This document shows, piece after piece, positions 5,605-64,000 of a stretch of DNA of 64,000 nt. The translations under genes and the position numbers were made by a program. Source of the stretch: a virus (Duplodnaviria; Caudoviricetes); IMG/VR virus record IMGVR_UViG_3300029705_000009; one strand, written 5' to 3'. Positions within the stretch are counted from its first letter, which is position 1. The number at the start of each line of letters is the position of its first letter. Below the pieces are notes generated by a model that saw only the letters and a list, made by a program, of their open reading frames with translations, was not told the DNA's origin and made no database searches.

Positions 5605-8600
5605 ATGAGAAAATATCCAGTATACTATGGAACAAACGCATATGAAGTTCGTTGGACAACTGTTGAAACAATGTATTCGTTTGAAGATTGTTTAGAAGTA
5701 TATCAAGTGAAAGAAAACAAGCTTTTCGGTATTAAGTTTAAATTGTATAAGTATTTATGTACTTATGTGGAAGACGATGTAGAGGATAGTCTTCTAAAAT
5801 CCGGGGTAGATAAAAGCTATGATGATTGGTATATTCGCCAGGCAAGTTTAGTGGTAAAAAAAGCATCGGGAATTTTACATAGTATAAATTTAAAAGATAT
5901 TCAAAAGGAAAAATTGAAATCCTGGGATGGAATAATCCCAGAGTGATGGAATAATATTATAGCGAAAGGTAAATAAAATTAAATATGAGCAAATCGGTAT
6001 TAATATTAAACACACCAACCAGCTGCAATAATTGTCCTTGTTGTAAACATTATGATCACGGTGTTTTTTGCGGAGTAACTGGAGGACTTATTATCTATGA
6101 CATGTATGACTTTAAGAAAAAATATGTGTTTCCAGACTGTCCATTATCTCCTCTTCCGGAACCAAAGGATCTCACTCAGTACACTACCGGTTCTACAAAC
6201 TTGGATAATATAATTCAATACGCACACGATCAAGGTTATAACGATTGTCTTTATGAATTGAATGGAGGAGACTTATAATCACAGCACAAGAAGCAAAACA
6301 AGAAGTTTTATAGGTGGTGATTAATATGACAGCTCAAACAAGAGATGTCAATTTGTGGGGAACTAAAAGTAGTAAAAGAATAAAAAGATTTTTTTAAAGG
6401 AGGTTTATAGGACAAAATGTTAAACGTAAAACCAAAATATTTATTAATCACAGCATATTTGCTCAATATTTTTGATGCAATTGTCAGCGTATTTCTATTT
6501 AAAACAATTGGCGTTGAAATAGAACTCAATCCATGGGGAATTTATTTATATAACAATGGAATTTTATGTTTATATAAAATGAGTGTGACGGCAATTGCTA
6601 TGTTGATAATTAATAAATTTGTTAAAAAATACCCAAAATTAATTTGGGCTTGCTGGGTTGTGTTTGTTGTATATGCAGTGTTAACAGTTTGGCATGTTTG
6701 GGGTGTAACAGCATTATGGTCTGCTGGTGCATTTAGAAATTAAGTATAAGAACAAAATGAAGGGATAAACAATGAGTAAATCAATATTAGTACTAGACAC
6801 ACCGGAATCCTGCAGAAAATGCAAATTAAGGTATGATTCTTATGGACAATGTGAAGTTTGTATTTTAGCAGATGATGTAGTTGATGAATTTTATGAAACA
6901 AATACAAAACCAGACTGGTGTCCTCTCTCACCGCTACCAAGTTTATCTCACTCACAGTTATTGAAGCCAGATAAAGAAGCCATAGAAAAAAGAGATACTT
7001 TAGAGGAAGGTAAAACAGATTTTACTGATGCTTTTAATCAAATTTTCGGAGGAATATTTAAATAGGTATGAACAGAGAAATACTTTTTAAAGGAAAAAGA
7101 CTTGATAACGGTCAGTGGGTAGAAGGAAATTATGGGTTTTTCAAATCTGTAAACGGAAACGAAAAAATGCATCATATCACAACAGAAGACGGTAAGGCTA
7201 TTAGAATCGACTCTTCTACCCTCTGCCAGTTCACCGGCATGACAGATAAGAATGGAACAAAGATCTGGGAGCATGACATCATTACTTTAAACGAAGATGT
7301 CAAGAAGACTTTTGATGTAGATGATGGAGAAGTCAGATATGGGTGGGGCGGATTTTATATTAAAGAATTCTCAACACTTAATAGTTTAAATACTCTTGCA
7401 TCTTATGATTGTATACTTCGTGGCGAAGTAATCGGAAACGTATTTGATAATCCGGAGTTATTAACTTAGGAGGGTAAAAGCATGAGCAATATTCAAACCG
7501 GCCAAGTAAACAATTTTGGTCAAGTAAACAATATTAATAACTCTGTTGTTTCATCAAATACCAGCATTGTTGTTGTAGGGAACGAAGTTACAATAGACGG
7601 CGTAAAAATACCACCCTGTCCTGGCAAAGGACATAGCTCAACCATTATTAATAATAAGGTGTATTTAAATGGCTATGAACTGATCAATGGAAAATGGAAA
7701 AAGACATTAAGAGCCTTATGGCACAAATGGTTCTAACTATAAAATTAGCATTTAGGAGATAAATATGATTCACTATTCCTGTGACTTATGCGGAAAAGAA
7801 TGTAACGACAAAACATTCACATTACCAATAGCAGCTACTTTTATTGATGGAGAGCCTTGTGATCTAATGCCAATTAATATGAATTTATGTAAAAAATGTA
7901 GAAGCGAAATTTATAAGGTAATAGAAAAGAAACTTTCAAAAGAAAAACTTAAGAAACTAAATACTTTAGCTCTTGATATAAAGATGAAAAAAATATTTTA
8001 AGGAGGAGACACAATGAACAAACACGCTTATTGGGCATGGGCAATAACAAACACTTTATGTATAACATCTTGGATTGCCCTAGCTATGGCATTTGACAAA
8101 TGGTGGATTGCTCTTTTCGCATTACTATTTGTTAGTGATTTAAGAACACCTACCCAGTGCTACTTCAGAGTATGTGACACCTGCGGAGAACATAGTCCAT
8201 GTGCAGAAACACCTGAAGAAGCATTAAAGAAAGCAAAAGAAGCTGGATGGACTCATTACGACGGAGCTAATACAGATTATTGTCCGAAATGCAAAAATAA
8301 ATGCGAAAAGGAAACATTATGAGTATAAAGAAACGTTATGAAACAGTAACTCACGAAGTTACGGAAGCAGTATTAGTTGAAGAAACAATGTATTGTGATG
8401 TTTGCAATAAAGTAATTCAAGACAAAGATGTTTATTGGGAAGTTACTACCGGTCATAACGATTGGGGTAATGATAGCATTGATAGTATGGAATGTTTTGA
8501 TGTATGTTCAGAAACTTGCTTAACGAATAAGTTCAGTGAATACATAAAAGAAAGTAGAAAAAATAAATGGAATACAATGTACTTTGATGTACGAAGAGCA

Positions 8601-10893
8601 TAAGGAGACAATATGAATACAACATATCACAAAAAAGAAATAGAAATTGCCGGAGAGAAAATCACAGCAGAATATTTTGAGAGCGGCCTCAATTTCTCTC
8701 CTACTAAACGCAGCAAACTCTCAGAATTATGGGACACCATTACTCTCCCATTCTACAGACTCAGATGGAAAATCAGAGATATTCGTAGAAAAATTCGTTA
8801 CGGAATTCAAAGAATGCAGAAAGATTATGATGACACAGATATCTTTGCACCGTGCGACAAATTTATTGAACGCTATACAAAAATCCTAAAGGAATTCAAG
8901 GAAAACCTTAATAGTCATCCTTGTCATATGACAAGTGAAGAATGGATCGCAATCATTGATCAGATGCTCTTCCACTTGTACTACATGGACGAGAATAACG
9001 TAGATAAGGAACTTAGTAAAGATGTGCCGGAATCATGGATTCCCTGCGGTAAAGCTTCCGATCAGATTATGCTGAAGCACAAAGATGAATTCTTCAAGCT
9101 GTTTTCGGAACACTTTTATGATTTATGGGATTGATTTAGGAGATATGGGTATGAAATATAAAGCCACAGATGCAACTACAAATGAATACAAAACTGCTTA
9201 TAGAAACATAGATGATTATGTTAAAGAAATGAGAGAATCAACACCAGAAGAAAGAAAAAGTATTCAAGAATATATAGACAAGATATCTGTTCCAACAGGA
9301 GTTAATTTCTATGATTTTATTGGTGTAGAATCTTCGCCATGTGATAACTGCACAAATAATCCTAAGAATGGAGGCAGTGGAATTTGTCATTGTACATTGG
9401 GAGCACCAGTGATTTATTAGGTAATAAAAATAAAATTTGCGAGGTAGTAGCTATGGATGATTATAATAAAAATCTTGAATACATTGAATCATTGAAAACA
9501 TTTATGGGTGGGAATAATGAAGATGTTCCGCTACATGGCGTGACTTTAGATGACATGAAGCATATTGTAGAAAGATGCAGAGAGTTTAATCTTCCACAAC
9601 CAGAGATCTTTCCGTGGGTTGGTGGTAATGGTGTTCAAGCTGAATGGGAATATGATTGGTATTTAGAAATTGATAGCTGCGACAAAGGAATAAGTGTTTT
9701 GTTTGTAAAAGGCAAAGACTATGACAATGCCATAAGTTGTAGATTATATGATATTGAGGATGCTTTTATGATGGTAAAAACATTTATTAATAATGTTGTA
9801 GATATTAAAGGCACAAGAAAAGAATAAGATTTTAAGAGGAAAAACATGATTTTATTAAAAGTAATTGGAATAGCGATATTTTCAAGTTTGGTAGTTGCAT
9901 TGTCGGTAATTATATTTCCTGATTTTGTTTATAATCATATAAAAAATAAAAAGGTAGAAAATTTTTTAGAACATGATTTGGTCAAGGCATATTGGATATT
10001 GCTGACTATAGTTGTTGATACATTATTAATACTGGGATTTATTAATCTTATTTGTTAACTAGGAGGCAATATGTTAATTAGAAGCCAAGATAGAAAGAAA
10101 ATTTACAATACTGATACAATGAGCAGTATTTGGATTAATCGAAATTGTATTTACATATCAGCATGTGGAGATGATACAGATTTGCTTGGATCATACTCCA
10201 CAGAAGAAAAAGCACTCAAAGTATTAGACATGATCGAAGAAAGAACCAACGAACCTATTTACATTAATGATGAAGGCGGCGGCGAATATGCGAAGTACTT
10301 CCACTCTTCTTTCCATATGCCGCAGGATGATGAGGTGGAATTAAAATGACAATGAAGCAGACAAGAGAACAATTTTTGTTAGCTTTAAATTCTAATGCTT
10401 ATATTGGCATGTGTACTACAGAAGACATGAAAAATGTTATCAAAGCATTAGACAAACAGATTCCAAAGAAACCGAAAGTTCAAGTAAGAGGAGTTTATAA
10501 TGATGATTCGGGCGACTGGGTGTGTGATGAAGAATGGTATATGTGTCCATCTTGCCAGATGCGGAATGAAGTATATCCAACATGGAAATTATGTCATCAT
10601 TGTGGGCAGATGTTAGACTGGCTTGAAATGAGAACATTAAAATATTGAGAGGATAAAAAATGAGTATTTTTACATTTTTGATGACTATTATTATAAGCAC
10701 TGGTGTAACGGCAATATTGGGTGATATGACAAAATCTGAAGGATTGGAATTTCTTAATCCAATATGGTTGTACGAAAAATATAAAGTCAATTGGTTTGGA
10801 GCCGGATTTCTTGGCATTTTACTTACTATATTAACACTGCCATATTCGATTTTCTATTGGATCTATAAACTTTGTACAGTCGGAAGAAAATAA
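5605..10893 (+). other. Run of small accessory ORFs, many Cys-rich or membrane: 5605..5946, 5985..6278, 6417..6743 (multi-TM), 6772..7065, 7482..7736, 7765..8001, 8014..8322, 8319..8603, 8613..9134, 9151..9420, 9453..9827, 9846..10058, 10071..10349, 10346..10648, 10660..10893
   Basis: Tightly packed + strand ORFs, most with their own RBS. CxxC motifs or TM segments in many. Confidence 0.8.
7068..7469 (+). CDS. YopX-family protein
   Basis: MNREILFKGKRLDNGQWVEG...CQFTGMTDKNGTKIWEHDII...EVIGNVFDNPELL matches the YopX signature. Confidence 0.9.
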   Translation: MNREILFKGKRLDNGQWVEGNYGFFKSVNGNEKMHHITTEDGKAIRIDSSTLCQFTGMTDKNGTKIWEHDIITLNEDVKKTFDVDDGEVRYGWGGFYIKEFSTLNSLNTLASYDCILRGEVIGNVFDNPELLT

Positions 10894-16690: not shown

Positions 16691-17080
16691 ATGCTTATTA
16701 AATTGATTATTTTAGCAGCAATGCTCTTCTGTCATGTTGTAGATGATTACTATTTGCAAGGAATACTTGCATCTATGAAACAAAAGAACTGGTGGTCTAA
16801 AAATGCACCGGATCCGTTATATAAAAAAGATTACATAATGGCACTATTTATGCATAGCTTTAGTTGGGCATTTATGATTATGCTACCGATTTTAGCATAT
16901 GATTTCTACTCTTCTACTTTATGGAAGTTTTATCCTGATTTTTTGATTGTGAACTGTATAATCCATATGGCAGTGGATAATCTAAAGGCAAACATGCTAA
17001 AGATTAATTTAATACAGGATCAGAGCATACACATGCTTCAGATATTCGTAACTTGGTTGATTTGGTGTTGTAAGGCTTGA
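16691..17080 (+). CDS. DUF3307-like membrane protein
   Basis: H(V)VDDYYLQ...HS...IHMAVDNLK...DQSIH His-rich TM pattern. Confidence 0.75.
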   Translation: MLIKLIILAAMLFCHVVDDYYLQGILASMKQKNWWSKNAPDPLYKKDYIMALFMHSFSWAFMIMLPILAYDFYSSTLWKFYPDFLIVNCIIHMAVDNLKANMLKINLIQDQSIHMLQIFVTWLIWCCKA

Positions 17081-18191: not shown

Positions 18192-18959
18192 ATGAGTATT
18201 TATGTAACCGGCGACACACATGGAAATCTTACTCGCTTCTCTATAGATAGTTTCTATGAGCAAAAAGAAATGACTAACCAGGAAGATAATTATATGATTG
18301 TCCTCGGAGACTTTGGTAGAGTTTGGGATCAAGAAGAAAGTAAAGACGAAAAATGGTGGATTAATTGGCTGGAAAACAAACCTTTTTATACTCTTTTCGT
18401 TGATGGAAACCACGAGAACTTTGATAGACTGTATCAATATCCTGTAAAGGAATGGCATGGCGGTCTAGTCCACGAGATTCGTCCACATGTGCTGCACTTA
18501 ATGAGAGGACAAGTCTTTAATATTGAAGAACTTCTCTTCTTCACCTTCGGTGGGGCATCTTCTCATGATATTCATGATGGCATTTTAGATTGCGAAGATC
18601 CTAACTGGAAAGAAAAAGCAAAAGCTTTGGATAAGCAAGGCAAATATATGTACCGTATTAAAGGTTTATCATGGTGGCCTCAGGAGTTACCTACCGAGGA
18701 AGAGATGCAAACCGGTATTGATAACCTGACAAAGCATAATAACAAAGTAGACTTTATACTCTCCCACTCGCCTTCCACTTCTGAATTGTATTTAATGGGC
18801 GGCAAAGGATTGTATGAACCAGATATGCTTACAAATTACCTGGAAGAGATCAAAGCAACAACTGAATATAAGAGACACTTGTTCGCGCATATGCATGTGA
18901 ACAAAGCAATCAATGACAGAGATATTTGCTTGTATGAGCAGATTATTAGGATTAATTAA
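18192..18959 (+). CDS. Calcineurin-like metallophosphoesterase
   Basis: GDTHG, GDFG, DGNHEN, ILSH and AHMH motifs. Confidence 0.9.
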   Translation: MSIYVTGDTHGNLTRFSIDSFYEQKEMTNQEDNYMIVLGDFGRVWDQEESKDEKWWINWLENKPFYTLFVDGNHENFDRLYQYPVKEWHGGLVHEIRPHVLHLMRGQVFNIEELLFFTFGGASSHDIHDGILDCEDPNWKEKAKALDKQGKYMYRIKGLSWWPQELPTEEEMQTGIDNLTKHNNKVDFILSHSPSTSELYLMGGKGLYEPDMLTNYLEEIKATTEYKRHLFAHMHVNKAINDRDICLYEQIIRIN

Positions 18960-18969: not shown

Positions 18970-21248
18970 ATGAACGAAAATTACATAATGTTAAATGGTA
19001 AACGTGTTGATCTGACCGAGGAGCAACTTGAGAAGCTTGGGATAAAGGTTGAGGTTGAGGTTGAGAAAGACTGTTTTAAAAGGGTAAATGCCACTAAATG
19101 TTATTATTTTACAAATGCAATAGGGGATTTAAGTAGTATGCCAGATTATGGCACCCTACTTGATGACCAACTTTACAAAGTAGCCAACTACTGCACTGAC
19201 AAATCCCTCATGCAGCAACGCACACTTCACGAAACTCTTGACCGTCTGCTCTGGAGATTCAGTATGCAGAATGATGGAGATAAGATTGATTGGAGTAATC
19301 AGTCAATAAAAAAATATTTTATAGCTTATGATTACCGTACAAAAAAATTTGAACCAGATTATATATATTCTTCATATGGTAGTAGTATAAAATATTATGT
19401 AGAATACTTTTACTCAGCCGAAGTAACCCAAAGAGCCATTTATGAAATCGTTCTTCCATTTATGAAAGAACATCCGGAGTTTGTGTGGTAAGGAGAATAT
19501 TATGATAGAAGGAATTGAAATTTTAGCACAGAGTGAGATTATGACGGATTCTAGCTGGACTGCATGGATTTTAGTATTGTTAGCATTTGGATTCGTTGTA
19601 TTTACAGGTGGATTAAGCAACAACATTGATTTCTTAGTTTTTATAGGTTGTATTGCACTGTCCATTAGTATAGTTGGAAGTTTGTTAATGGTAATTATAA
19701 ATCCAAAAGAACCAACCGGCAAATATGAATATCAAGTAACCATAGATGAAAATGTATCTTTTACTGAACTATACGAAAAGTATGAAGTGGTTGATCAGAA
19801 CGGAAAGATATGGGTTATAAGAGATAAAGATGTGGAAGATGTTAAAGAGGTGAAATAACATGGCACTGATGATTTCAGATGACAAGAAAAATTTTTATGT
19901 AACATGTAAATGTGGATGCGAAGGAATTCTTTTTAAAGTAGACGATTCCGATAAAGATTATGGGTGTTATGCATTATGCATGTGTTATAGCAATAATTAT
20001 TACAAGGATCAAGATGATACTGTTCTAAAAGTGATCAAAAGAAAGTTTAAGAAAATATGGGCAATTCTTAGAAATAAGGATTACTACTATTCTGAATTGA
20101 TTATGACTAAAGAAGATTTTGATAAGTTCAAAGAACATATCAATCAGTTTTAATCATGAATAAGAGTAAATAAAATAATATATTGAGGTGATAACATTGA
20201 AAACATATACTATGGAAAACATAAAAATTTCACAGCATGCCAAAGCTCGTTATAGCGAACGTATAATGGATAAGGATGATAAATCAGATGTTGCAGTGTT
20301 TATTGCACAGCATGAACAGAAAATAAAAGAAGATATTTTTAAGATGATTCAGTATGGCACACTGCTCTACTCCGGCAAGTCTACATGTGAGTTTAATAAG
20401 CAGCCTGTAGATATCTTCTTGAACGGGACCTGGGTCGTTATTGTAGATATTGCAAAGGCAAATGTAATTACTTTATATAGCATTGATCTTGGTTTGGGCA
20501 ATGAGTTCAATAATGAATACATAAAGAGATTGCTTGATAAGTTGAATGTTGCAAAAGAGGAATATGATACTGTTGTTACTGGAATCATGACTCAGAAAGA
20601 AACTTACTCTTCTATTATTAAGGAAAACACGGATCAAATTAATGAACTGAAGCAGATGGTCAAGAATCTGGAAAAACAGAATCAGGCTTACACAGATGTG
20701 ATTGAAAGTTTGGAAACGGACAAGGTAATTGCAGAAAAGGAAGTTAGAGATATTATTGCTACCATGATTGGTAAGAAAGTGTTTTAGGAGGATATATGGT
20801 AAAAGGTGACAAAATTAAATTAATAAAGCCAATTGGTATTTTCTCAAGTGTTGGTGAAATCTGTGAAGTAATTAATGTAACAGATACTGGCGTAATCAGT
20901 TTTGTGTTTAACGGTGGTCGTTCTTCTGGATGTATGTCATATGATGAATATTTAAAGCATTTTGAGTTGGTTCAGCCAGCAGAAAAGAAGCCAAGTGTTT
21001 GGACTGACTGGAAACTTGCAAATATTACATATTACGATTTGGGTAATGAATATTGTGGAAGTGAGATTTATTACAAGCATAATGGCAAAAGAGTTAAAGT
21101 GAAATGTCCTATTTGGGGTGTAAAGACAGAAGCCTGTTGCCATCATGAGGACGAGTTTGATCTTGCAAAAGGATTGAATTTGGCAAAATTTAGACTCATT
21201 GTAAAGATTTTAGATAGACAAGTTCAAGAAATTGCGGAGGGTATGTAA
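18970..21248 (+). other. Hypothetical ORFs 18970..19491, 19502..19858 (2 TM), 19860..20153, 20188..20787 (coiled-coil C-terminus), 20796..21248
   Basis: Contiguous + strand ORFs with RBSs. Confidence 0.75.
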
Positions 21249-22292: not shown

Positions 22293-22875
22293 CGATTTAC
22301 ATTTAAACCATAAAAATGTAACTGCAGAAGGAAAGAATTTTGATAATAGACCTTTTCAGACATTGGATGAGATGCATGAGGCTATAAAAAGAAATTGGAA
22401 TGCTAGAGTAACAAATTCTGATACTGTTTATCTCCTTGGTGATAGTATTTGGAATCTGACAGACGAGATGATTGCTTTAATGGCACAGCTTAAAGGCAAA
22501 AAGGTTGCAATCAAAGGAAATCATGACAAATTCAACGACATTCGTTATAAGCAGTTATTTTCTGAGATTTGTGATTATAAGGAAGTGTCAGATAATGTTC
22601 ATGGTATGAATTATATGCTTGTACTCTCCCATTTTCCTATCCTTATGTGGAATGGACAGCATAGAGGCTGGATTCACCTGTATGGACACGTACATAATTC
22701 TAATGATTATGCTTTTTATAAAGATTCTCTGAAAAGATTGAACGAGTATTATAAAGACCGAGATGGAGAAAATTTCAAACCGTTTTATGCTTATAACGTT
22801 GGATGTATGTTGGATTATATGGGATTTGTTCCAAGAACATTGGCAGAAATTGTAAGTGCAAATGAAAGTAAATAA
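22273..22875 (+). CDS. Calcineurin-like phosphoesterase
   Basis: SDLH, LGD, GNHD, SHFP, LYGHVH and NVG motifs. Confidence 0.9.
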   Translation: MANYYISDLHLNHKNVTAEGKNFDNRPFQTLDEMHEAIKRNWNARVTNSDTVYLLGDSIWNLTDEMIALMAQLKGKKVAIKGNHDKFNDIRYKQLFSEICDYKEVSDNVHGMNYMLVLSHFPILMWNGQHRGWIHLYGHVHNSNDYAFYKDSLKRLNEYYKDRDGENFKPFYAYNVGCMLDYMGFVPRTLAEIVSANESK

Positions 22876-28033: not shown

Positions 28034-28040
28034 TTATTAT

Positions 28041-28129: not shown

Positions 28130-29165
28130 TAATCCCACTACTCTTCCACCTGTGAGGAATAAACCAGGAACGCATGTCAAAGGAAGACCTTCTCTAAATG
28201 CCTGAGACACGTTGGTGGTTAACTGCTTACCACCTTTATAAATAATATGGCGAACTTTAAAAGACGAGTGGGCATAGCTAAAATTGCTGGAGAGCCGAAA
28301 ATAGCACATTAACCAGATTCATCAAACGGCGTGTTCCAAACGAGTTAGTAATCTTGTGGTGAGACGAAAGCTGCTGAGAAAGTCTCAGGTTTATTTACTC
28401 TTCTATCCTAGTGTAGACAGAGCTGAGATTTCGTCATTATGACGTTTTCGTTATAGGTGATTCACTACCTTAAACGTGAGACGATAAAGAAGGGTATAGA
28501 CTCCCAACAAAGAACAGCGCCTATAGGGCATTAATAGTGTGAAGGCTTTGGTTGTCGTTAGTATGGGCTTACCAAAGCAGTATACGTCCGACGGGACTGA
28601 CACCCAGGAAAGACTGGGCAAATTTGAAAGTGTTCCGCTACTTAAGGCGAATTATGATAACAGAAGTTCCTACACCTCTCAACGATGTGTCACATAGGAA
28701 CACATATACATAGGCTTACAAGATACGCTGCAACGCCTTGTGTAAAAACTTGGGTAAGGTTCTTATTGTTTGCAGACAGTAAGAAATAGTCAGGGGTAAA
28801 ACATCGCCAAAGTTTAGCCTTTTTGTCACCCTGATATATTTGGCAGTTTGTAGAACTGCCCTCTGCTTACCAGAGCAACTAAACTGGAGGGATTGTAGCG
28901 TGTCCCAGAATAGAGAAATCTACGCTACTTTTATTTTGCCGAAGAGGCCACTTGCAGAACGTAGAACCGTTAAGGTAGAACGTAAACTGGATATCCGGAA
29001 ATCCGATGTTTTCAGCTAGTTGACTGCTTCACGCTGACAAATTTATGAACAAAAACCGTTAGAGGTTTTTATCAGAGACGGTGCATGCACTGAAACTGAA
29101 TTTGAGCTTTTGAATTGAGAACTTCGGTTCTGTAGAGAGTTGCACATAATGTCCAGCTCTTGATT
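28130..29165 (+). ncRNA. Large structured non-coding RNA region (one large RNA or several small ones) inside the tRNA cluster
   Basis: About 1 kb with no credible ORF, higher GC than the flanks, and many hairpins and long-range stems. Confidence 0.6.
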
Positions 29166-29169
29166 CTTT

Positions 29170-34928: not shown

Positions 34929-35016
34929 TAACAAATACGTACATTGACGGGTGCGATGTACATTGCATATCAGGAGAGGTTTCTGTCCTCTCCTACTTCT
35001 TTGGAGGAAAAGGATA

Positions 35017-35886: not shown

Positions 35887-35999
35887 TTTCTCCTTTCGTA
35901 TTTTACACATGTGCGTGCCCATGTGTTGGTTATATTATAACAAAATATTGAAAATTGTAAAGATATGGAGAGTGGATAACTACTCTCCTATTATTATGT

Positions 36000-42418: not shown

Positions 42419-42515
42419 CACGTTAAATGATATAAACTCTCCTCTTCTATCGAGGGGAGTTTTATTATATACAAATTTGTTTTGAATCATGGGGGAAAGG
42501 AGGAAAAACGGATAA

Positions 42516-45968: not shown

Positions 45969-48900
45969 ATGGCAACAACTACTACAAAAAAGACTACAAC
46001 TGCACCTAAAAAGGTAGAAGTAGCAACTGAAGAAATTGTTGAAAAAGATATTGTAATGGAAGAAAAAGTTACTCCAGTAAAAGAAAAGAAGGTATTTACA
46101 GATTCTGATTATATTTTGTGTCGGTCTGTATGGTCTGGTGGTTTAAATGTAATTTCTCAGTCTGGTAATTTATACGAATTTGCAGATTATGGTTCAGAGT
46201 GTGAAATCAATCATAGAGATTTAATCACAATGATTAGACGAGGCTCAGAACATGTTTTTATGCCTAGATTTGTAATTCTTGATGAAGACTTTTTACAGGA
46301 TTTCCCGACAGTTCAGAGAGTATATGGAACGATGTATACCATGAATGATTTAAATGAAATTCTTGAATTGCCTGTATCTAGAATGAAGACCGAGATTATG
46401 AAACTGCCGAAATCTACTAAAGATAGTATGCGTAACTTGATTGCAACACAGATTGCAAATGGAAAGATTGATAGTATTTCTAAAGTTAGAGCACTTACAG
46501 AACTTTTTGATTCTGATTTTAATCTTCTTAGTGATTTATTTGTTAAGTAGTTCGGAGGTGTATTATGACCTACGAAGAAATATATTCTCAGTTTTATACT
46601 AAAATTGCAGACCCTACTTTTTTTAATAAATACACACAAGATGAAGCTTATGAATTGATGAGGGATTGGTTACATAGTATTGTTGGAATTCCCTATGTTC
46701 GTAAATGTTTCTCTTCTATTGCACTTGATGATGAAATATTAGAACTGACTTATAGTTTAGTAAATTCGATTGATGAAAATTCTGATGATTATTTTGTAAA
46801 AGATGTCTTTTCTCAGGGTCTTGTGATTTGTTGGATGCAACAGCAAGTTGACAAAATTGTAAATCTTGCTACCGTTATTGGAGGCAAAGACGAGAAAACA
46901 CTTCTTAATAATTATAAAAATAATATGGCTAGATTAGAAGAATTAAAAACTCAATTTAGAAAAACAATTCGTGATCATGGCTATATTTATAATGACTATG
47001 TAGGTGAATAATTATGAAGCATCTATATGGAGAATTTTCAGAAAATCAAATTGCACAAACTGCACAATCATTAAGGCGTTCTATTTTTTTCTTATTATTA
47101 TGCGTCGATCCAAAGACATCCTGGGAATATCCGGATGTTAATGTAAACAAATGTTTTAATGGTTTGTTATATAGGATTGGCGGTTTAAATAAGCTCTTAC
47201 TTGAAAGAATAGAGGTTGTTACAACTATGAGTCTTCTGCAAGCTGCATTAACGGAATTCAATAAACCTAATTTTGATTTTGGAGTTTATAGAAAGTTAAT
47301 TCTTGATGCGGGAGCAGAAATTGAAAAACTTCGAGAGGAGGAATAATTATGCCTACTTTTGAAGCTATGAAAAGAAAATACTCTCCTACTACAGTTGGAG
47401 AGCAAATAAAAGATATGGCTAATATGGTTATGGATGAGACTTTTTCAAATACAACAACCTATCGTAATGGTATGATTTATGATTGTAATATGAACGAAAT
47501 TAAAAATATGGAGTTCAGATTTATCAAAACAAAAACGTATACCATTGAAAAGGATCAGGTTGAGTATTGGGTACAGTTTAGACCAGGTGTGAATCCAGAA
47601 ATAGAATTTGACACTTCTAAGGATCAAAAACATAGACTTGGATATTACATTGACATATTAGATGATAATACAAAACTTTATGAGAAATGGCTTATTATTG
47701 GAAAAGACGTAAGCGAATTTGACAGATATAATGTTTTGAAATGTAATTGGTTGTTTGAGTGGCTTGATGAGAATCGAGTTTATAGAAAATGTTTAGGATG
47801 TGTAAGAGATCGTAATTCTTACAACAGTGGCGTATGGTCAGATGGATTCACTACTAGTGTAGAAAATCAGACTGCATTTATTGTTCCTACGAATGATATA
47901 ACAATGGCTATTGATTATGGCCAGAGGTTTATGATTACTGACAACACTATACATCCAAAAACATATGAAGTAACAAAAATGATGGACACCTTCCCGTTAG
48001 GTGTTACAAAAGTTATACTTAAACAATGTCATTACAATGAACATATTGATTTATGTGGTCCGGATGAAAATTTCTTTGGAGATGAAAATATTCATATGAT
48101 TTGTAATTATTTTCAGTCTAGTATTAGACCTTCTCCAAATAAACTTATCTCTCCTATTTCATGGACTTTATCAGAAGTTAATGACAAACTTTATGTTCAT
48201 GGACAGCCTCAAGTTATAAATGCTATTCCAAACGAGTATATAGAAACTGCAGAGCATTGTGAGTGGCACCTTTTTATTGATAATGAGGACTACACTAATA
48301 AGCTTGAGGAATTGGTTAATTACTTGGATCTTTCTCTTGATCAAGAAAACAACACTCTTACTATTGCTGCAATTAATAAGGATTTGGCAAATTATATTAT
48401 CTCAATTAAGATATATGATGAAGCTAGGTCTTATTTTGATTTTGTTGAAATGGAGGTATGTATTTAATGGCAATTATAGCAAAACAAAAAGAGCCTAAAT
48501 TGTCTCAAAACATGCAGGACGTTATCAACAAGAGTCACAGAGATGGTAATGGTGATTGTTACGATGACAATGAAAGATATAAGTATAAAATCATGAAAAT
48601 GTTAACTGAGAATCAGGATGTTTTATGGGCTTTACATAATGCTGAATTGGAAGAAAAATTCGCATTCAAAGATGACGAAGGTAATACAAAGTTAAATGGA
48701 GACGCTTACAGAAATGTAAGTGTTTTTAATTTTCTGAAGATTCCAGATATTCAAAGTAGGGTTAGAAACTATATTTGTTTTGAAGTTAATGACATTGAGC
48801 AACCACGCTATAATGATGCTTTAATTATAAAAAACATTATTTTTAGAACTGTTTCTCATGATGATGATTATAAAACTGATTGGGGAATGTCAAGACAAGA

Positions 48901-49904: not shown

Positions 49905-49983
49905 AAAGTTAATAAACACATTAATCAAGAAGAGTGAAAAACCACTCTTCTATTTTTATGTAATTTGAAAGGAGAATAAACAA

Positions 49984-51853: not shown

Positions 51854-52306
51854 TTGAATATGGAGCAAAAGGAAAATAGTTCTCGCTCTCCTATCATCTA
51901 CACTAGAGAGAACATAAAGTCATTAAAAGAATTATCAGTTTTAGAGGATGGTCAAATTTATGTATATGTAATGTTAAATTCTGCAGGAAATGTAAAAATT
52001 GGCAAAACAACAAATATACAGCAAAGATTGATATCTTTGTCAGGTAGTAATGGTGGAGGATCTAAAATTACTGCTTTATACTGCTCTCCTGCTACATGGA
52101 TTCAGAGTATAGAAGATACATGTCATAACCATTATCATTTTGCACGAATACAAGGCACTGAATGGTTTGATGGTGGAAAAATTTCTTTCAAAGACGTAGT
52201 TAGGTATGTAGATGGATTATTTCATACAAAAGGGTATGAAATATGTAATGAGCTGAGAAGAGAATTGGCTATTAAAGGTAAAAAATATGACAACAAAGGA
52301 AATTGA
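51854..52306 (+). CDS. GIY-YIG / T5orf172-like nuclease-domain protein
   Basis: GQIYVYVM...VKIGKTTNIQQRL...IE...H...GTEWF. Confidence 0.75.
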   Translation: MNMEQKENSSRSPIIYTRENIKSLKELSVLEDGQIYVYVMLNSAGNVKIGKTTNIQQRLISLSGSNGGGSKITALYCSPATWIQSIEDTCHNHYHFARIQGTEWFDGGKISFKDVVRYVDGLFHTKGYEICNELRRELAIKGKKYDNKGN

Positions 52307-52739: not shown

Positions 52740-53296
52740 ATAAAGTGTTAAAGTTGACCTCTCCTATTCCTCCGTCGCAAAATCATTATACGGGGATCCG
52801 CATTATTAAAAGCGGTGGTAAGAATATTCCTATGGTTTACAAAACTAAAGAAGCGAAGGAATATGAAGAAGTATTTGAGAAAATTGTACGAGATTCAGTA
52901 AAAAATCAAGCTTATAAAACAAACCTAGACAGTGAACAGCATTTTTATGTAGATGCTGTTTTTTATTTTGATCGAAAACACAAAGATAGTTCAAACTCGG
53001 ATAAGGTACTATTGGATGTTATTACAAGAACACAATTGGTATGGAAGGATGATAGTATTGCTCTCTTTCGACCACAAAGGATTTTTTATGATGCAAGTAA
53101 TCCTAGAATAGAACTTTTTGTATATCCCGTTGATTACGTTGGCATCTTTGATAATCAAGACCAGTTAAATCAATTCGAAAAAAAATGCAAAACATGCAAA
53201 CGTTACTCTCGTAACTGCTCTATCCTTAGCAAAGCAAAAGAAGGACGTATCCAAGAAGAGATACAAGATTTGACATGTAGTAAATATAAGGAGTGA
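52736..53296 (+). CDS. rusA: RusA-family Holliday junction resolvase
   Basis: IPPSQNH...DSSNSDKVLLD....VWKDDS...PRIEL. Confidence 0.8.
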   Translation: MNKVLKLTSPIPPSQNHYTGIRIIKSGGKNIPMVYKTKEAKEYEEVFEKIVRDSVKNQAYKTNLDSEQHFYVDAVFYFDRKHKDSSNSDKVLLDVITRTQLVWKDDSIALFRPQRIFYDASNPRIELFVYPVDYVGIFDNQDQLNQFEKKCKTCKRYSRNCSILSKAKEGRIQEEIQDLTCSKYKE

Positions 53297-55267
53297 TTCT
53301 AATATATTCATGGGAAATTGATCAATATTTGCGGACAAGGAAATGGCTTTTAAATAGAGAAGAATACATATATGTTTCAAATGTTAATGCCAGTCCACAG
53401 ATTCAAAAGATAAAATACAATCCATATGATACAAGTTTTTATATGGAAACAAATGATGGATATAACTGGATATTTAGAATAAAGGAGTAAAAGGATGAAA
53501 ATAAAAGTTGATAATTGCTATGATTGTGGCAAGCCATGTATGCTCTTCTGTCCGGTTCGGGACGACTCATATGAATGGCATTGTGACGAATGTGATAGCG
53601 AGACACAATTGTATGAATTTGAAGGCAGAGAGTTGTGTGCGGAATGTATACTTCAATCTCTTGACAAAGTTAATTAGGAATAAAAGGAGAAAAATATGAG
53701 TGACAATAAAATTAGTGTAAGTAACTATTTGGAAAATGTGGAATTATTAGAAATAGATTATACTCCTTATGATGTAAAGGTTGATATAGTAGATGTAATT
53801 TTATCTCAGGTAATTATAGATGATGAAATGGAAAAAATCGATTCTGCATTATTGAAAAGAATAAGTACTCAGATTTTTATTGAATCCATCACAAATATAG
53901 ATATGTCTATTAAGTCAGATAATGGTTTAGATGGATATGATGAATTATGTTTGTTAAATGAATTAGATGATTTGCTAAATCTTATTTTTGATGAATACAG
54001 TAGATTTGAAAATATTCTCGAATTAAAAGTGGCTGATTTTTATAGGTATAAAAATAGCACAAGTTCTACTCTTCTATCTTTAAAAAATAAATTATCAAAG
54101 TTTGTAAAAGAAAAATCAGACGAGATAAATAATTTAATTGAGAATATAGATACACAGGCTTTGTCGAATAAGTTAAAAGTATTGATTGATGAGAATATCA
54201 AAAAATATAGAGGAAAATAATTATGGAATGTATTCAATTGGTATCTGTATATAATCAAAAAACAAAGAACAAGCCGGATTTATCAGACGAAGAAAGAATA
54301 AAAATAATTAAAGATTTAATACATCCTAAAAAATACATGTCTTTTAAAAGAAAACAAGAAATAATTTTGGGAGTGTTGCAAAGTGTTGTAAATATTTCAG
54401 ATAATAAAATTTTTTATAATAGCTGTAATAAGTATATTTCTTTTATTAATACTATTCTTTCTGTATATACTGATTTAGATATTGATGAAACAAGTTATGA
54501 TATTTTATGTTCTAATAATATATTGAATTATACAATAGGTTCATTAGGTTCCGAATATGATATTTGTTTGGGAATTATGGAAATGTATATGGATGATTTA
54601 GAACATAACCGTATTGAATTATAAAGGTTGTGATATTGTGGACAAATCATATAGAAAGCAATTAAATGATATAAGAACAGAAATAGGAAACATTGGCACA
54701 TCTTTTGCAAAAGGATTGGCCGAACAAGCTCATGAAGATTTGAAAACGGCACATCGACAAATAATAGACAATTTTTATGCTGCTCATGACCCAAATTCAT
54801 ACAACAGAAAAGAAGGATTGTATGACAGTATTATACCTCAAGGAGTAAATCATAGTTCCAACAAAAAACTTACTTATCAAGCAAGTATTGTTGTAGGTAG
54901 TTTTAGAATGGACGATCATTACAGGGGCGATGTTACTCCGGATAATATATTCGATTTAATGTGGAATAAAGGCGTTCGTGGATTGCCAAAAATTGGTATG
55001 GATACATTGGATCATAATTATACATGGTTGGGAACTTTTTATGATTATGGAGACAACCCTAGACGCTGGGAAAATCCATATTGGAGTGGTCAAGAAAATC
55101 CCTATCATAATATTTTCTTAACAAAAATAACAATGGGCGAATATACGACAAAGAAAGCAAGTGTGCCGAACATAGCAATGATTGATTTTGTTAATCATTG
55201 GAAACAAGCCAACGGAAAGAAAGCTTGTGATAAGTTATACAAAGAAATAAAGAACAAATATAGTTAA
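53293..55267 (+). other. ORFs 53293..53490, 53495..53677 (Zn ribbon), 53696..54220 and 54223..54624 (tail-assembly-chaperone-like pair), 54614..55267
   Basis: Position immediately upstream of the tape measure. The two chaperone-like ORFs share a Y.P/S...K..I....L..V pattern. Confidence 0.55.
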
Positions 55268-61300: not shown

Positions 61301-64000
61301 AACCAAACAAAATAGTCAAGCTAAAAAATCTAATGCGGAACGTGAACGTGGAAAAGATTTTGGTGACGGTGCAAAGTATATTAATAGTGACATTTCAGTT
61401 GCCAGAAAGCAATTAGCCAGAAAAAATCTTGGTGATGATACAAGAAATAAATGGCAATCTATATTTGATTCTGCTACTGCCGAAGCTGAAAAACGTGGAT
61501 ATCAGAAGAATGCACAAGGTTTCTACGAGGATCAAAAAAAGAAACAAGAAGTTGCAAAAAAAACAACGAAAGTCGTTGAACAAGAATCAAAGAAGCAAGA
61601 AATAGCTAAAGATGCCAGTGCTGAAGCGATTAAAGGTGCATTAACACAAGCAGAACAACTTCTTACTTTTTATAAGTCAAAAGATACTTTAAACGAAAAA
61701 GAATTAGCAGATGTTTCACAGTTAGAGGAATTTATTCGTGTAAACAAGGCGGGTTTGGCAGAAATTGAAACTGAAACCAAAGAATCCTCTTCTACCACTG
61801 TTCAATCTGAAGAAAAGAAACAGGAAGCTATTAAAGAAACTCGTAAGGAAATTGATTACGAGAAAGCTAGTGTTGAAGAATTAATTAATGCATATAAGAA
61901 ATCTGAAAAAGCATTAAAAACTTCTAAAAGGCAAGAAACTATTGATTATCATAATAATGTTCTTACTAACTCTGGTAAATCCTTGCAAGATAAAGGATAT
62001 TCTCTTGCAGATGGAAAATGGAAACAGACAAATAGTTTAGATAAACTTTTTAAAGATCCAAGCTTAATGTCTGAGCGTGAATTAGGTGTTGCTCTTGGTA
62101 GTTATTCTAATGAATGGATAAAGTTATATTTAGATGGAGTTAAAGCTTCCACTCCAGAGATGGAGCAAGCATTTAAAGTAATGGCTGAAATTCCAGAAGA
62201 AATTCTTAGAGAAGTTCTTGAAATTAATTCACCATCTAAAGTAATGGAAAAGCTTGGTTATTGGACAAATGCAGGTTTTGCAAAAGGTATAAGAGATAAT
62301 TCTGATGACATTAAAAACGCTTTAATTCAAGCATTTACTGATGCAAAAATCACTCAAGGTGAACTAGAAAAATGGTTAGGATTAGATGATACAAAATCTT
62401 TAATTGGCAAACAAGGTAATAATACCATTTATAAAGCAATTAAAGATATTGTTTCAAATAATTCATTGTCAAATTCTTATAAATCCGATAACATTATTGG
62501 TCTTTCTAAAGCAAAAGAAATGGTAAAATCATCTGGATTAAAAGTTAATGATGATGATTTAAAATCTTTAGGTAAAAAGGTTGGACGTCAATGGCAAATA
62601 GCTGAAGATGCCGTCAATGAATATATTATTAAGAAAAAAGAAGCTTTATCAAAAGAAAAAGAAGCACAAAATGAAGCAATTAAATATCTTGATAGGCAAA
62701 GTGATAAATACAAAGCAGTCATTGACTTAGCAGAAAAACTTGGACTTGTTCTTGGTAACAACGTCAATATTACTGAAAAGGTCAAGGATGGTATACCGTC
62801 TTATAGTTTAAAAGGAGAACTTGCCAGTGCAAATATTAGTCTTGGTGAAGACGGTTCTTGGAAAGTTTCTAGCGTTAAAGAAATTAATGATGGTTATTCC
62901 AAATTAAAAAAGACTTTAAGTGAGATTTCTAAGCTAAAAGGTTATAAGATTGATTTGCTCGATGAAAGCGATCCTGCTATGTTCGGAACATATGCGGATA
63001 AGGTTAAAGAAGCCAAAGACGCACTTGTCGCATTGAGACTTGTTGAAGAAAATGGGTACAATGGAGAGCCAATTGAGGATTTGGTTCAGAAACTTGAACT
63101 TGTAAAACGGGTAAGCTCTGAATTAAAAGGAAGTTTACAAGTTGGTGAATCTGAAAGCATTGGAAAGATAGATACTTCTAGATTAAATCAGGTTCGTCAG
63201 CAATTAGAAGCATTGGCTTTTTCTACTTCTAAAGGTTCCGTAGAAATTAAGAAGATGTCCAAAAATAACACAGAACTCACATATACTGTGAGAACTGCGG
63301 ATAATATGCTTCAGACTTATACTATTACAATGAATAAGTATACCGGAGCATTGACAAAAACTTTAGTTTCTGAGGAAAAACATTTATCAGGTTTCCAGAA
63401 AGCACTCAAAGGTATAGGTGCGAAATTCCAGGAAATTTTCAGATATACCATTGCAAGCGTAAGTATTTATGAAGTATTCAATTTTATAAAACAAGGTGTT
63501 AATGTGGTTAAAGAAATGGATGCTGCAATGACCGAACTTCGAAAAGTTTCTAATGACACAGAAGCAGCATTGCAATCCTTTAGAAAAGAAGCTTTTGAAA
63601 TTGCAAATACTATTGGTAGCACCGGTAAGGAAATTGTAAATTCCGCGGCAGATTGGGAACGTCTTGGTTATAGTATACATGAAGCTTCTGAATTAGCAAG
63701 AAACTCTGCGTTGTATGCAAATGTTGGTGACATGGAAATTGATGTTGCTACTGAGCATATGGTTTCAACTTTAAAGGCATTTAATATTGAAGCTAAAGAT
63801 TCAATTAGAATCGTTGATAAGTTTAATGAAATAGGTAACAGTTATGCAATCACATCGTCAGGAATTGGTGAGGCATTAGAACGAAGTGCTTCTTCCTTGG
63901 TTGCAGCAGGAAATGACATTGATAAATCAATTGCTTTGATTACGGCTGGTAATATAGTTTCTCAGGATCCTGAAAGCGTAGGTAATGCTATTAAGGTGCT
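55314..64000 (+). CDS. Giant tail tape-measure protein, incomplete at the window edge (>2,890 aa)
   Basis: ATG 55314 after AAGGAGG. The TP901-type TMP core (EMDAAMTELRKVS...ADWERLGYS...IVDKFNEIGNSYAITSSGIGEALERSAS) at ~63500-64000 is in the same frame. The ORF track shows no + strand fragments here, consistent with no internal stop. Confidence 0.88.
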   Translation, partial: MANYDVIKTYGIEITAVTDKATDQINQLEKELDELSKKKGLSAGLQSQIDKIGESLNGLKGEIVSSTKSINDNLSKINTDKMSQEFKDMQNSIASSVNELQEEMKNLKNSMDFLKTGDFSGFTSGIGKSFDTLSDNISDIVGKFSELSNFINDIRVGAIDTSGLQKSEKGVKTATSHITNDLTKTKTKVEELLRQMRDAMDDFTLDDLMSDGKNSGLGTEEARTLSENIDIILQLIDELKKAQVDVNDIFNKDGIKLSEKALKGYRTELNKIVKERTADAAKERKKSTNPTEVRFRYVIEDPNSSTIDSIVEKVKTDVIEKVQKRIDGSPIRIPIGYTYDKAGITSAKELDKIENQNVDKTIFEHIKLDVKADTSNLVDYVKDQVDEINKQLKDTKRQIEVEVVGKVNNDTVDESLNDLQEEILHRQYNGSGFTTISGANINIGGDNIATETTLSNIRDILLDWNHAKSSSSLSVETLSKEDENALFDYENALKIRKRSSVLLSQTEGQLDVVEYARAKIALLSKQKSDLTSINNNVKKGNIDALQGTDYYSAYYVKDDVKYAKYGSSGETLDKWQEKLNSEFEETHKKIVDATASLNDEFDGYLRGEKDWKELLIEDLKKQWAKDTTDSALEKAKLERADSVKLLMDRHNSNLKPGQERMTSDQAVLQLINSEYSERIKEIQDSNELTEKYESQITSIKRKALNQIIKDLTKGYHDAILLTQNMIKAQERNIALNSDGSEQNSSLRIGTKANRQGQANNPDEAINALNSELDQIDQEAISKHKAQQEITNDLKLQKNIMSEIVDLIEKQKTASLSDKEVINERLNALIQNLTLTKQELQAQENIEDVIKSITDLEEKRSTAIKNLESAKTKLEEDKKSGASTKVLNQSKNEIIKQNGIIAQLDLEIDNYTNQLDETIRNSFSENVDNLETFIKTKLSSIDKLILNSTNKENAIIGQAKRAKYDIASQYTLRDHSKSGYISRDNKISAISEEQSRLSKMVRYNRDGSYDTSAMTKLEEKRYFNNIKILKDLKLQQVVYEAIYGKRAEILGIEEKETETIKETSIALKNLPLSKKGADAYLNTPTIFTSDGTGEKLKGSIFENSNSRIPENLKGLSLESAEQIKNNLSLVISELTDYVGKEILKDSEKVEAKMRDAARKMVQKDIDILQRELTDNNEYIKQLKQNGADSGVIKSAQKRSNELSATINQLKYSEVDNTALKEEIQNLERIKKLQEEISNSGDQNKIMDLAEQRAKSEERIAYLQENFDKASSVRESRIQLYVDLQKKEFELVKSILEKKERELNIVNELVSLKQKEREESEKIRQEEEIALAEKEKRESLTEEEQKSNINKKYNSQIAEQEEVIQKEKEAISPLKQKSEELEYQLKLIKEQAALHYKDLIIREKTLNSLISNPKTSIDKKEDYKKELEKIPQLKEVAAKQTLPSNWNSLAKSTRTKYKSRYLADSEKYQSQFMSISKEYNDAKYNYGDNAEETLAIYNELVSVSEKLLDSSLKYIATGGEESKVAEKILSASKIKYEHDSSSIKTQKSRNDLLLQEHEIALKTAEANKSTLEVKKQEELDAIQTRKEEANLLKEKQQYINALEQEAKLKRKTGFYQGMSDEQYLAAYKVDAMLKLINDDQKVLNSLADNTSDEYIEIANRIEKAKSLLKEFRHEALQIDGLKLSEETGRTYYKKDTKIKGVSYSGLGSTTAKDMSEIRENAKAVTNSILEEHKAQTRVTSEVKETKKEYSELGHLRKFAGYSDEQVGLVEEIFKVNQQLQSNAKLSKEETEELKKQLKVLHEQAKLKDIKINRKGYARYLSGRNDFLDNPSKYDTNSLIHSYLHPQIQSDNIVDNINSNGSEQFALENTLQNIKKILQSGLKVKVVDKLDSYETPSDDASKIGYASRAKKVGATSEYGKNEKGSFNTKGYQEVAKELGLLQKSKNGNLFVSKKDRNKVYSEMDKRGIARYLEEDTNATKKNIEAKKESKKVVDKDTDATKQNSQAKKSNAERERGKDFGDGAKYINSDISVARKQLARKNLGDDTRNKWQSIFDSATAEAEKRGYQKNAQGFYEDQKKKQEVAKKTTKVVEQESKKQEIAKDASAEAIKGALTQAEQLLTFYKSKDTLNEKELADVSQLEEFIRVNKAGLAEIETETKESSSTTVQSEEKKQEAIKETRKEIDYEKASVEELINAYKKSEKALKTSKRQETIDYHNNVLTNSGKSLQDKGYSLADGKWKQTNSLDKLFKDPSLMSERELGVALGSYSNEWIKLYLDGVKASTPEMEQAFKVMAEIPEEILREVLEINSPSKVMEKLGYWTNAGFAKGIRDNSDDIKNALIQAFTDAKITQGELEKWLGLDDTKSLIGKQGNNTIYKAIKDIVSNNSLSNSYKSDNIIGLSKAKEMVKSSGLKVNDDDLKSLGKKVGRQWQIAEDAVNEYIIKKKEALSKEKEAQNEAIKYLDRQSDKYKAVIDLAEKLGLVLGNNVNITEKVKDGIPSYSLKGELASANISLGEDGSWKVSSVKEINDGYSKLKKTLSEISKLKGYKIDLLDESDPAMFGTYADKVKEAKDALVALRLVEENGYNGEPIEDLVQKLELVKRVSSELKGSLQVGESESIGKIDTSRLNQVRQQLEALAFSTSKGSVEIKKMSKNNTELTYTVRTADNMLQTYTITMNKYTGALTKTLVSEEKHLSGFQKALKGIGAKFQEIFRYTIASVSIYEVFNFIKQGVNVVKEMDAAMTELRKVSNDTEAALQSFRKEAFEIANTIGSTGKEIVNSAADWERLGYSIHEASELARNSALYANVGDMEIDVATEHMVSTLKAFNIEAKDSIRIVDKFNEIGNSYAITSSGIGEALERSASSLVAAGNDIDKSIALITAGNIVSQDPESVGNAIKV

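Follow-up and report, generated by a model that had tools for sequence, protein, structure and literature searches.

A one-stranded octamer in a large gut prophage as a candidate counterpart of its host's chromosome-polarity word

The octamer CTCTYCTA recurs on one strand of a 64,000-nucleotide stretch of phage DNA (Duplodnaviria; Caudoviricetes; IMG/VR virus record IMGVR_UViG_3300029705_000009), referred to here as the window, which represents G000:C1:36947-100946 of a 153,849-bp IMG/VR provirus (G000) that is 88% complete. On one strand of this 154-kb provirus the word is too frequent by a factor of about 10, and its enrichment is confirmed as real; it is also polar, is conserved with turnover among related phages and has a parallel in the Bacillus subtilis prophage SPbeta. 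Our preferred and tentative explanation, to which we would give rather less than an even chance, is that the word is the reverse complement of a polar architecture word of the host chromosome, of the type represented by the FtsK-orienting polar sequences (KOPS) and the SpoIIIE recognition sequence (SRS).

Exact matches to CTCTYCTA number 19 on the + strand of the window and 3 on the − strand. A preliminary description of this DNA had listed 19 + strand positions, every one of which proved to be an exact match, and its claim of over-representation was borne out by shuffled, Markov and codon-aware null models. None of 100 dinucleotide-preserving shuffles of the window reached the 22 copies (mean, 4.2), and across the whole provirus the word occurs 32 times in the forward and 4 times in the reverse orientation, compared with 6 and 6 for a reversed control word. 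The long rightward arm of the genome contains 19 copies of CTCTTCTA where Markov models of orders 1 to 3 predict 0.95 to 2.3, and 11 copies of CTCTCCTA where they predict 0.4 to 1.0; under the same models these two forms constitute the top over-represented word family of the arm, outranking Shine-Dalgarno words. The full consensus, derived from 52 sites in two genomes, is CTACTCTYC(T/C)AYT (C-T-A-CTCTYCTA-Y-T), position 7 of the word accepting C as well to give CTCTYCCA. The flanks hold no information outside positions −3 to +9, which excludes a repeat family or paralogy as the source of the copies, and a megablast comparison of the phage with GenBank phages gave no match.

G000 is laid out as a 40-kb arm with its genes on the − strand and an arm of about 110 kb with its genes on the + strand from about 4.2 kb of the window. 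Gene orientation and GC skew switch in a divergence region at 2991..4230, through which the word keeps its strand. Matches to the 13-mer at at least 11 of its 13 positions are divided between the strands 72:5 genome-wide, the rightward arm contributing 56:5 and the leftward 16:0, and a narrower 13-mer consensus gives 48:0 and 6:0. The permissive form CTCTYCYA was found 39 times in the rightward arm against 3.1 expected and 5 times in the other arm against 9.3; its complement, the purine word TRGRAGAG (in the forms TAGAAGAG and TAGGAGAG), has a ratio of preferred to other strand of 39:7 in one arm and 5:1 in the second. On its sense strand the leftward arm bears a single copy of the word where 0.2 to 0.3 are expected, copy numbers in the short arm being small. 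The word thus keeps to one DNA strand in both arms of G000, as it does in the related phage G001 and as its counterpart does in SPbeta, whatever the orientation of the genes, and it exceeds expectation only where genes run against the inferred direction of host replication. A flip of polarity had been proposed as a check at a putative origin (~3.3-4.2 kb); none occurs, the same strand carrying the word in both arms, which speaks against a primase or fork-linked site.

The genic copies allow the contribution of coding constraints to be assessed, with genes called by a simple longest-open reading frame (ORF) routine that is crude and adequate for frames. Inside + strand genes CTCTYCTA was found 24 times, against 1.8 expected from codon permutation and 3.0 from synonymous shuffling within genes (maximum, 7 in 300 shuffles); under a first-order codon (dicodon) chain in the main frame, the 8-mer was observed 20 times against 3.0 and a 10-mer 18 times against 1.2. 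The enrichment, which the preliminary description had envisaged might vanish once dicodons and terminators were modelled, therefore stays. The x-Ser-Ser/Pro-Ile reading that it reported applies to 20 of the 24 genic copies (frame xxC-TCT-YCT-AYY, ending in Ile or Thr) and fails for the remaining 4. Chance copies would divide among the frames at about 76:20:4, a rough estimate from codon frequencies that about matches the observed bias; because some three-quarters of chance copies would occupy the main frame, the bias marks the cheapest placement of the word and not its reading by the ribosome. The base preceding TCT is C in 11% of cases generally and in 56% at TCT-YCT-AYY sites, and there are 60 occurrences of the peptide x-S-[SP]-[IT] where 34.7 would be expected, an excess equal to the number of copies, which argues that the DNA word shapes the proteins and not the reverse. 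At its own sites the word biases synonymous codons approximately 20-fold, and it adds roughly 25 Ser-Ser/Pro-Ile/Thr peptides. The DNA uptake sequences and uptake signal sequences of Neisseria and Haemophilus are likewise selected words that sit in the cheapest frames, inflate peptides and often lie in terminator stems; they differ in not being strand-polar and in serving competence, of which there is no sign here. The notion that the copies are a by-product of codon usage, codon pairs or a preference for Ser-Ser/Ser-Pro-Ile/Thr peptides, with no function at the level of nucleic acid, gains something from the shared frame and from the status of TCT, CCT, ATT and ACT as preferred codons; it is nevertheless scarcely credible, given that the synonymous, codon-permutation and dicodon nulls all fall short by 7- to 20-fold, that C is so favored before TCT, that the peptide excess follows the word, that 8 non-coding copies carry the same flanks as the genic ones and that SPbeta-type copies occupy all three frames. 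These nulls rule out an artefact of codons, dicodons or peptides.

Structure in the transcript does not account for the copies in general. Terminator-like stems hold only 5 to 7 of 30 copies and the mean pairing probability of the word is 0.54, compared with 0.52 at random positions, and on these grounds a general hairpin or intrinsic terminator element was rejected. No complementary 13-mer that could belong to a partner RNA was found on the same strand of the whole genome, and Rfam returned tRNAs only in the window and nothing at two copies just past its end. A resemblance of the word to a Tetrahymena-like CUCUCU 5' exon led nowhere.

Relatives of the phage were found by searching with an 860-amino-acid protein encoded at 24306..26888 (+), which is probably a YonO-type single-chain RNA polymerase to judge from its family match (phrog_8308), its DMDSD motif and the SPbeta-like order of HU-like, yonJ-like, terminase and portal genes. 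The search yielded 11 viral contigs. In G001 (137 kb; polymerase 66% identical), CTCTYCTA is distributed 27:1 in favor of the polymerase strand and heads the codon-aware ranking of that genome as well; matches to the 13-mer at at least 11 of 13 positions amount to 61:3 in G001, 15:3 in G004 and 16:27 in G002. The preliminary description had asked after conservation at synonymous positions in relatives, and the answer is divided: the word is perfect in all 5 of the orthologous places at which the DNA of G000 and that of G001 align, amid 75-82% identity, whereas in diverged orthologous proteins (29-61% identity) single sites decay and the two genomes have their copies at different places, new ones replacing the old. 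Single copies are lost or altered in closer relatives too, and copies in G004 align to remnants with 1 to 3 mismatches in G002 and G003. Density and polarity, rather than location, are selected, and turnover with maintenance of density is the mark of a signal acting through its number and direction. The earlier proposal of a dispersed DNA-level signal under selection is supported, the excess outliving dicodon and terminator modelling and the same word lying on the same strand in relatives.

The distribution of the word among these phages bears on the nature of its reader. The word is present in L012 and L015 and missing from L016, L018, L019 and G002, and the polymerases of L012, L015, L016, L018 and G002 form one tight clade with 100/100 support, into which L019 falls too; furthermore, G000 and G001 have the word in common despite non-orthologous terminases (24% identity), which makes a packaging signal, one of the candidates put forward previously, unlikely. 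Because presence of the word is uncoupled from the polymerase tree and is shared by phages with unrelated terminases, neither the polymerase nor the packaging motor is a likely reader, a host factor fits better, and the reader is probably host encoded. A search for a reader by co-occurrence produced one candidate, a GP88-family protein (PF17338), which was set aside as a CX3CX2C radical-SAM-like TIM-barrel enzyme with no obvious character of a sequence reader.

SPbeta, examined as the SPBc2 genome (L042), provides a comparison with known biology. On the sense strand of its late arm, CTCCCYT, CTCTCCC and CCTCCCC occur 31 times in total against 3.8 in synonymous shuffles, in all three frames, and the same set occurs once against 0.6 in the early arm. 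These late-arm words are the reverse complement of the SRS family of B. subtilis, the recognition sequence of SpoIIIE (PMC5869595, PMC3936747). Exact GAGAAGGG is found 4 times in the late arm against 0.4 expected and is distributed 7:0 overall, AGAAGGG is distributed 24:2, and the B. subtilis Chi sequence AGCGG is distributed 50:6 in favor of the same strand as the SRS-type words, wrong-orientation Chi being purged from the late arm (2 against 15.2 expected). A coordinate anchor (PMC8270828), together with textbook positions of origin and terminus, identifies the enriched strand as the leading strand of the left replichore. SPbeta is therefore adapted to the polar words of its host whatever the orientation of its genes, with an excess visible only in the head-on arm, and this is the same pattern as in the window. 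Such adaptation of SPbeta to host direction words is apparently undescribed, as we found no description in the literature searched.

The host of the present phage can be approached through its right end, where a tyrosine integrase adjoins the host genes gap-pgk-tpiA, integration having taken place directly downstream of tpiA at the end of that cluster (genome 151574-153849, loci L055 and L079). By its triosephosphate isomerase the host belongs to the family of G309 (up to 92% identity), and Coprobacillaceae were rejected at 50-54% identity; the host is a Firmicute of a Lachnospiraceae-like family. The host flank has a G+C content of 47-49% and the phage one of 34%, a difference unusually wide for a resident prophage. 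Of 20 host genes around the integration site (on two host contigs), 17 share the strand of tpiA, the − strand of the window.

We suggest that the word would function as double-stranded DNA in which the − strand of the window reads 5'-TRGRAGAG-3' (extended, ARTRGRAGAGTAG), and that its most likely reader would be the gamma domain of a host FtsK/SpoIIIE-type DNA translocase, the word telling the motor which way the terminus lies; both this reader protein and the use of the word by the host chromosome are matters that we infer. The 110-kb arm, which bears the RNA polymerase and structural genes, would be transcribed against the host direction, and its antisense strand, being purine-poor, would hold almost no purine words by chance. 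Selection would then write words into genes at Ser-Ser/Ser-Pro-Ile/Thr positions, where TCT, CCT and AYY make them cheapest, into spacers and into terminator stems, and would thereby restore the one-way polarity that the other arm would have for free. Among host polar words the KOPS/SRS type appears most likely because of the purine character of the complement and its likeness to the Firmicute KOPS GAAGAAG, the candidate GTAGAAG and GAGAAGGG. Of the candidates listed in the preliminary description, only the Chi-like site falls within the class of host polar architecture words; the best fit within that class, a KOPS/SRS-type word read on the purine-rich complement, had not been proposed there.

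Several known systems invite comparison. Firmicute KOPS are divergent purine words, namely GAGAAGGG, GAAGAAG and the Streptococcus pyogenes candidate GTAGAAG (PMC3384302). The complement of our word resembles the KOPS/SRS words of Escherichia coli (GGGNAGGG), B. subtilis (GAGAAGGG), Lactococcus lactis (GAAGAAG) and S. pyogenes (GTAGAAG) (PMC3384302, PMC5869595, PMC3936747) in being a purine word of 7 to 8 bp that is one-stranded to the extent of 85-94%, acts by density and orientation and not by position, and is species-specific within the Firmicutes; TAGAAGAG has TAGAAG in common with the S. pyogenes candidate, and the SPbeta counterpart contains the exact SRS. Lambdoid prophages carry polarised, over-represented KOPS, co-oriented with replication and at no less than host density, an enrichment that Bobay, Rocha and Touchon (2013) read as selection for matching the organization of the chromosome (PMC3603311). 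That work dealt with temperate phages of enterobacteria, in which the KOPS is known and the effect is close to host density, whereas here the host is a Firmicute, the word is deduced from the phage, and the effect falls mainly within a head-on arm of 110 kb, whose protein sequences it visibly alters. The architecture-imparting sequences of Hendrickson et al. (PMC5993296) are likewise skewed octamers, the orientation of which limits the residence of foreign DNA in the chromosome, but they are defined on host chromosomes, with a gradient toward the terminus.

A number of observations weigh against the KOPS/SRS explanation. The main weakness lies in G680, a member of the host family whose triosephosphate isomerase is 92% identical: over 400 kb of a single replichore (G680:C2:1-400000, L059-L078), TRGRAGAG is distributed 69:6 between leading and lagging strands against 54.6:10.3 from composition, which is unexceptional, and other words stand out far more. 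A Coprobacillaceae genome with a related polymerase shows no excess, that family not being the host's. The 13-nucleotide consensus is longer than the classical 8-bp KOPS, and the density in the head-on arm, at 0.36 per kb, is some threefold that of the other arm and of KOPS in E. coli (about 0.1 per kb). In the co-directional arms the permissive word does not rise above codon-aware expectation (3 against 6.5 in G000; 12 against 10.8 in G001). Wrong-orientation copies are mildly depleted in the head-on arms (9 against about 17, pooled), but in a codon-aware test the sense strand of the co-directional arm of G000 is depleted likewise, and we rejected such purging as support for polarity. The most enriched words of SPbeta, of the AGGGGAG type, overlap the exact SRS and are not identical with it. 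Finally, it is by gene-strand bias that the window's − strand, with TRGRAGAG, is taken as the likely leading strand of the host. The G680 replichore has its own top over-represented leading-strand words, TGGATGAG (54:6, with 16.6 expected), GGTGCTGG and CTGGTGGA, which are candidates for its Chi or KOPS.

Four other explanations must be set against a KOPS/SRS-type word. In one, which we regard as unlikely, the word would work co-transcriptionally or at the RNA level in the lytic arm: as the YonO-type enzyme transcribes that arm, the pyrimidine word would be recognized on the non-template strand or in nascent RNA and would, through its density, signal pausing, processivity, anti-termination, processing or stability; it and its SPbeta counterpart would then constitute a previously unknown cis-element of very long YonO-type operons, needed by density, and the resemblance to host words would be a coincidence, a conclusion that we hold to be equally doubtful. 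The word is specific to the sense strand and in excess only in the arm with the polymerase and the late genes, the enriched arm of SPbeta is the one that experimentally needs YonO (PMC5467207), 5 to 7 non-coding copies form arms of terminator-like hairpins, one of them 9 nucleotides before tRNA-Thr and kept in three genomes, and the phage is rich in RNA functions such as tRNAs and a beta-CASP nuclease. Against these points, presence of the word ignores polymerase phylogeny, its density over 20 kb upstream of that gene equals the density downstream, its pairing probability is that of random positions with no complementary partner RNA on the same strand, and the match of the SPbeta word to the host SRS, the like polarity of host Chi and the copies outside the YonO transcript are left unexplained. 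The YonO start site at 168 coordinate 2225998 (PMC5467207) corresponds to x=60451 in SPBc2 through the yomD-bhlB coordinates of PMC8270828, a point bracketed by the primer-extension primers; the nearest SPbeta-type copy lies 55-62 nucleotides upstream of it and others lie further upstream. The start site thus coincides with no copy and most copies in the window lie deep inside ORFs, which excludes the word as a YonO promoter, and an element read by the YonO-like polymerase, another of the candidates in the preliminary description, loses ground with this lone mapped promoter and with the indifference of the word to the polymerase tree. A literature search on YonO promoters or late-arm motifs found nothing.

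A close rival of the KOPS/SRS explanation, to which we nonetheless assign only a slim chance, is a Chi-type word: a host helicase-nuclease of AddAB/RecBCD type would recognize the purine form on the leading strand, and the word would thereby protect prophage and replicating phage DNA and promote repair. Chi enrichment in temperate phages is a known phenomenon, Chi sites are short, over-represented, skewed to the leading strand and host specific, and the arguments from polarity, density (about one per 3-4 kb), turnover and host specificity apply as they do to KOPS/SRS, SPbeta being polarised for the known Chi of B. subtilis. Known Firmicute Chi sites, however, contain a GCG core (AGCGG, GAAGCGG, GCGCGTG) that TAGRAGAG lacks, the analogous word family of SPbeta resembles SRS and not Chi, and the top over-represented skewed words of G680 (TGGATGAG, CTGGTGGA) are of another type. 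That the word is a polar signal of the phage's own DNA metabolism, such as a primase start, a T5-like site-specific nick, or a packaging or ejection signal, is improbable. The bias to one strand, the NAD-dependent ligase encoded by the phage and the presence in the word of CTA, the trinucleotide preferred by Firmicute DnaG primases, are compatible with it, but polarity does not flip at the divergence region, the other arm has no excess, the word is shared by G000 and G001 despite unrelated terminases, the SPbeta-type word lacks CTA, and no replisome genes are present among the scanned large ORFs of the 88%-complete contig. Less probable still are sites for a lysogeny protein with a tyrosine-recombinase fold (a YopP/YopQ/MrpR-like trio), serving as one-way roadblocks that silence the lytic arm. 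MrpR-like and YopQ-like genes do occur in G000, G001, G004 and SPbeta and are absent from G002, which is complete and motif-less, and a 13-nucleotide asymmetric site has the size of a recombinase half-site; the same co-occurrence would equally arise if host polarity mattered to integrating phages alone, members of the trio share just 30-41% identity between G000 and G001 while the word is identical, and the MrpR/SroF operator of SPbeta is AT-rich, spans 15-24 bp at about 10 early promoters and gives no late-arm peaks in chromatin affinity precipitation sequencing (PMC10516654). That operator, SPBRE (PMC10516654; bioRxiv 10.1101/2025.11.27.690993), a promoter element of the type TTATACATATTTTTTGT, is a repeated, asymmetric, dispersed element in an SPbeta-type genome and a MrpR-like gene is present here too; it was rejected as unrelated to our word, which is pyrimidine-rich, 8-13 nucleotides long, mostly intragenic and present in 40-70 copies in place of AT-rich elements of 15-24 bp in about 10 copies at early promoters.

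If the KOPS/SRS explanation is correct, a prophage sequence would by itself reveal the probable chromosome-polarity word of an uncultured gut Firmicute from a Lachnospiraceae-like family, a group for which, to our knowledge, no KOPS, SRS or Chi word is known. It would also show how hard the architecture of the host chromosome presses on a large prophage, the word being the strongest oligonucleotide feature of the counter-replication arm, and such words could help to assign host and integration orientation to metagenomic phages.

The individual copies in the window illustrate these patterns, those given next all lying on the + strand. CTCTTCTA is found within ORFs at 7211..7218 (ORF 7068-7469, frame xxC-TCT-TCT-Axx, D-S-S-T), 16909..16916 (ORF 16691-17080, Y-S-S-T; a perfect 13-mer, CTACTCTTCTACT), 20607..20614 (ORF 20188-20787, Y-S-S-I), 34208..34215 (yonJ-like exonuclease gene 33708-34928, F-S-S-I), 46711..46718 (ORF 46565-47011, F-S-S-I) and 61787..61794 (a giant tape-measure-like ORF from 55281, S-S-S-T), and, as a perfect 13-mer in a different frame (T-L-L), at 54069..54076 in ORF 53696-54220. 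The copy at 20607 is kept in G001, has its first C changed to T in L009 and L014 and is lost in L013; that at 34208 is kept in G001 and lost in L009 and L013. CTCTCCTA is found at 8696..8703 (ORF 8613-9134, F-S-P-T), twice in ORF 47349-48467 (47381..47388, Y-S-P-T; 48149..48156, I-S-P-I), at 51886..51893 (ORF 51854-52306, R-S-P-I) and at 52759..52766 (ORF 52736-53296, T-S-P-I). A gene at 31126-32577 holds both forms, CTCTCCTA at 31533..31540 (Y-S-P-I), which is absent at the orthologous place in G001, and CTCTTCTA as a perfect 13-mer at 32427..32434 (Y-S-S-I); its product is a metallo-beta-lactamase/beta-CASP/RMMBL protein (RNase J/CPSF-like), a nuclease only 35% identical in G001, and an HNH/treble-clef homing-endonuclease-like gene (29970-31115) adjoins it at the start of the late region. 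The variant CTCTCCCA occurs at 8743..8750, 18759..18766 and 22624..22631, each as part of an 11/13 match to the 13-mer consensus, and the variant CTCTTCCA (CTACTCTTCCACC) at 28141..28148. The three copies on the − strand lie at 2847..2854, 26405 and 40320.

Outside genes, CTCTTCTA at 28398..28405 is kept with its flanks in L010 and L011. It lies in a 1.1-kb stretch between tRNA-Pro and tRNA-Glu (28034-29168) that has no ORF and no Rfam match, is kept in part in L010, L011 and L013, and occupies the place of an unannotated non-coding RNA of SPbeta downstream of the YonO promoter. CTCTCCTA forms the 3' arm of a hairpin (AGGAGAG..CTCTCCT) at 34988..34995, past the stop of gene 33708-34928 and with a GGAGG ribosome site 7 nucleotides on, and, as a perfect 13-mer, that of a hairpin at 35983..35990, 9 nucleotides upstream of tRNA-Thr (36000-36082), which is kept in G001 and L009. 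CTCTTCTA is part of a terminator hairpin (CTCTCCTC..GAGGGGAG and a T-run) at 42442..42449, between genes 41510-42418 and 42516-44192, and of the 3' arm of a terminator-like hairpin (AGAAGAGTG..CACTCTTCT and ATTTTT) at 49945..49952, ahead of gene 49984-50763 and kept in G001. Intergenic hairpins at window positions 34960-35000, 35955-35995 and 49920-49960 and genome positions 101610-101645 and 127795-127835 follow a common design, AGRAGAG(N)-loop-(N)CTCTYCT and then A and a T-run, in which the polar word doubles as the descending arm of the terminator-like stem.

Some minor observations concern other genomes and genes. In the SPBc2 record (60590-60440, − strand), ATAGTCATTTATGAGGGTG comes directly after the mapped YonO start (A at x=60451), and a near-repeat, TGTTCATTTATGAAGGT, lies about 140 nucleotides upstream; the late arm of SPbeta is enriched in TCATTTA-type words as well, and these features offer a lead for the YonO promoter. 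G002 (IMG/VR 3300021399_000109, loci L027-L034; complete, 158.7 kb) has no CTCTYCTA, and its top codon-aware word is AAGACCCT (14 against 1.8 expected); 16 of 17 rightward-arm copies of AGACCCT in that genome lie downstream of the polymerase gene, mostly as x-Asp-Pro, and the complement AGGGTCTT might be another host's polar word or an element of some other kind. The GP88-family gene, which lies outside the window at L035:11237-11995 (−; genome 11237-11995), encodes the most conserved protein between G000 and G001 (87%) and is present in G004 and not in G002. With its invariant CX3CX2C motif, a C-terminal Cys cluster and a confident structural model (pLDDT 86) that gives weak TIM-barrel-like matches, the product is probably a radical-S-adenosylmethionine-type enzyme.

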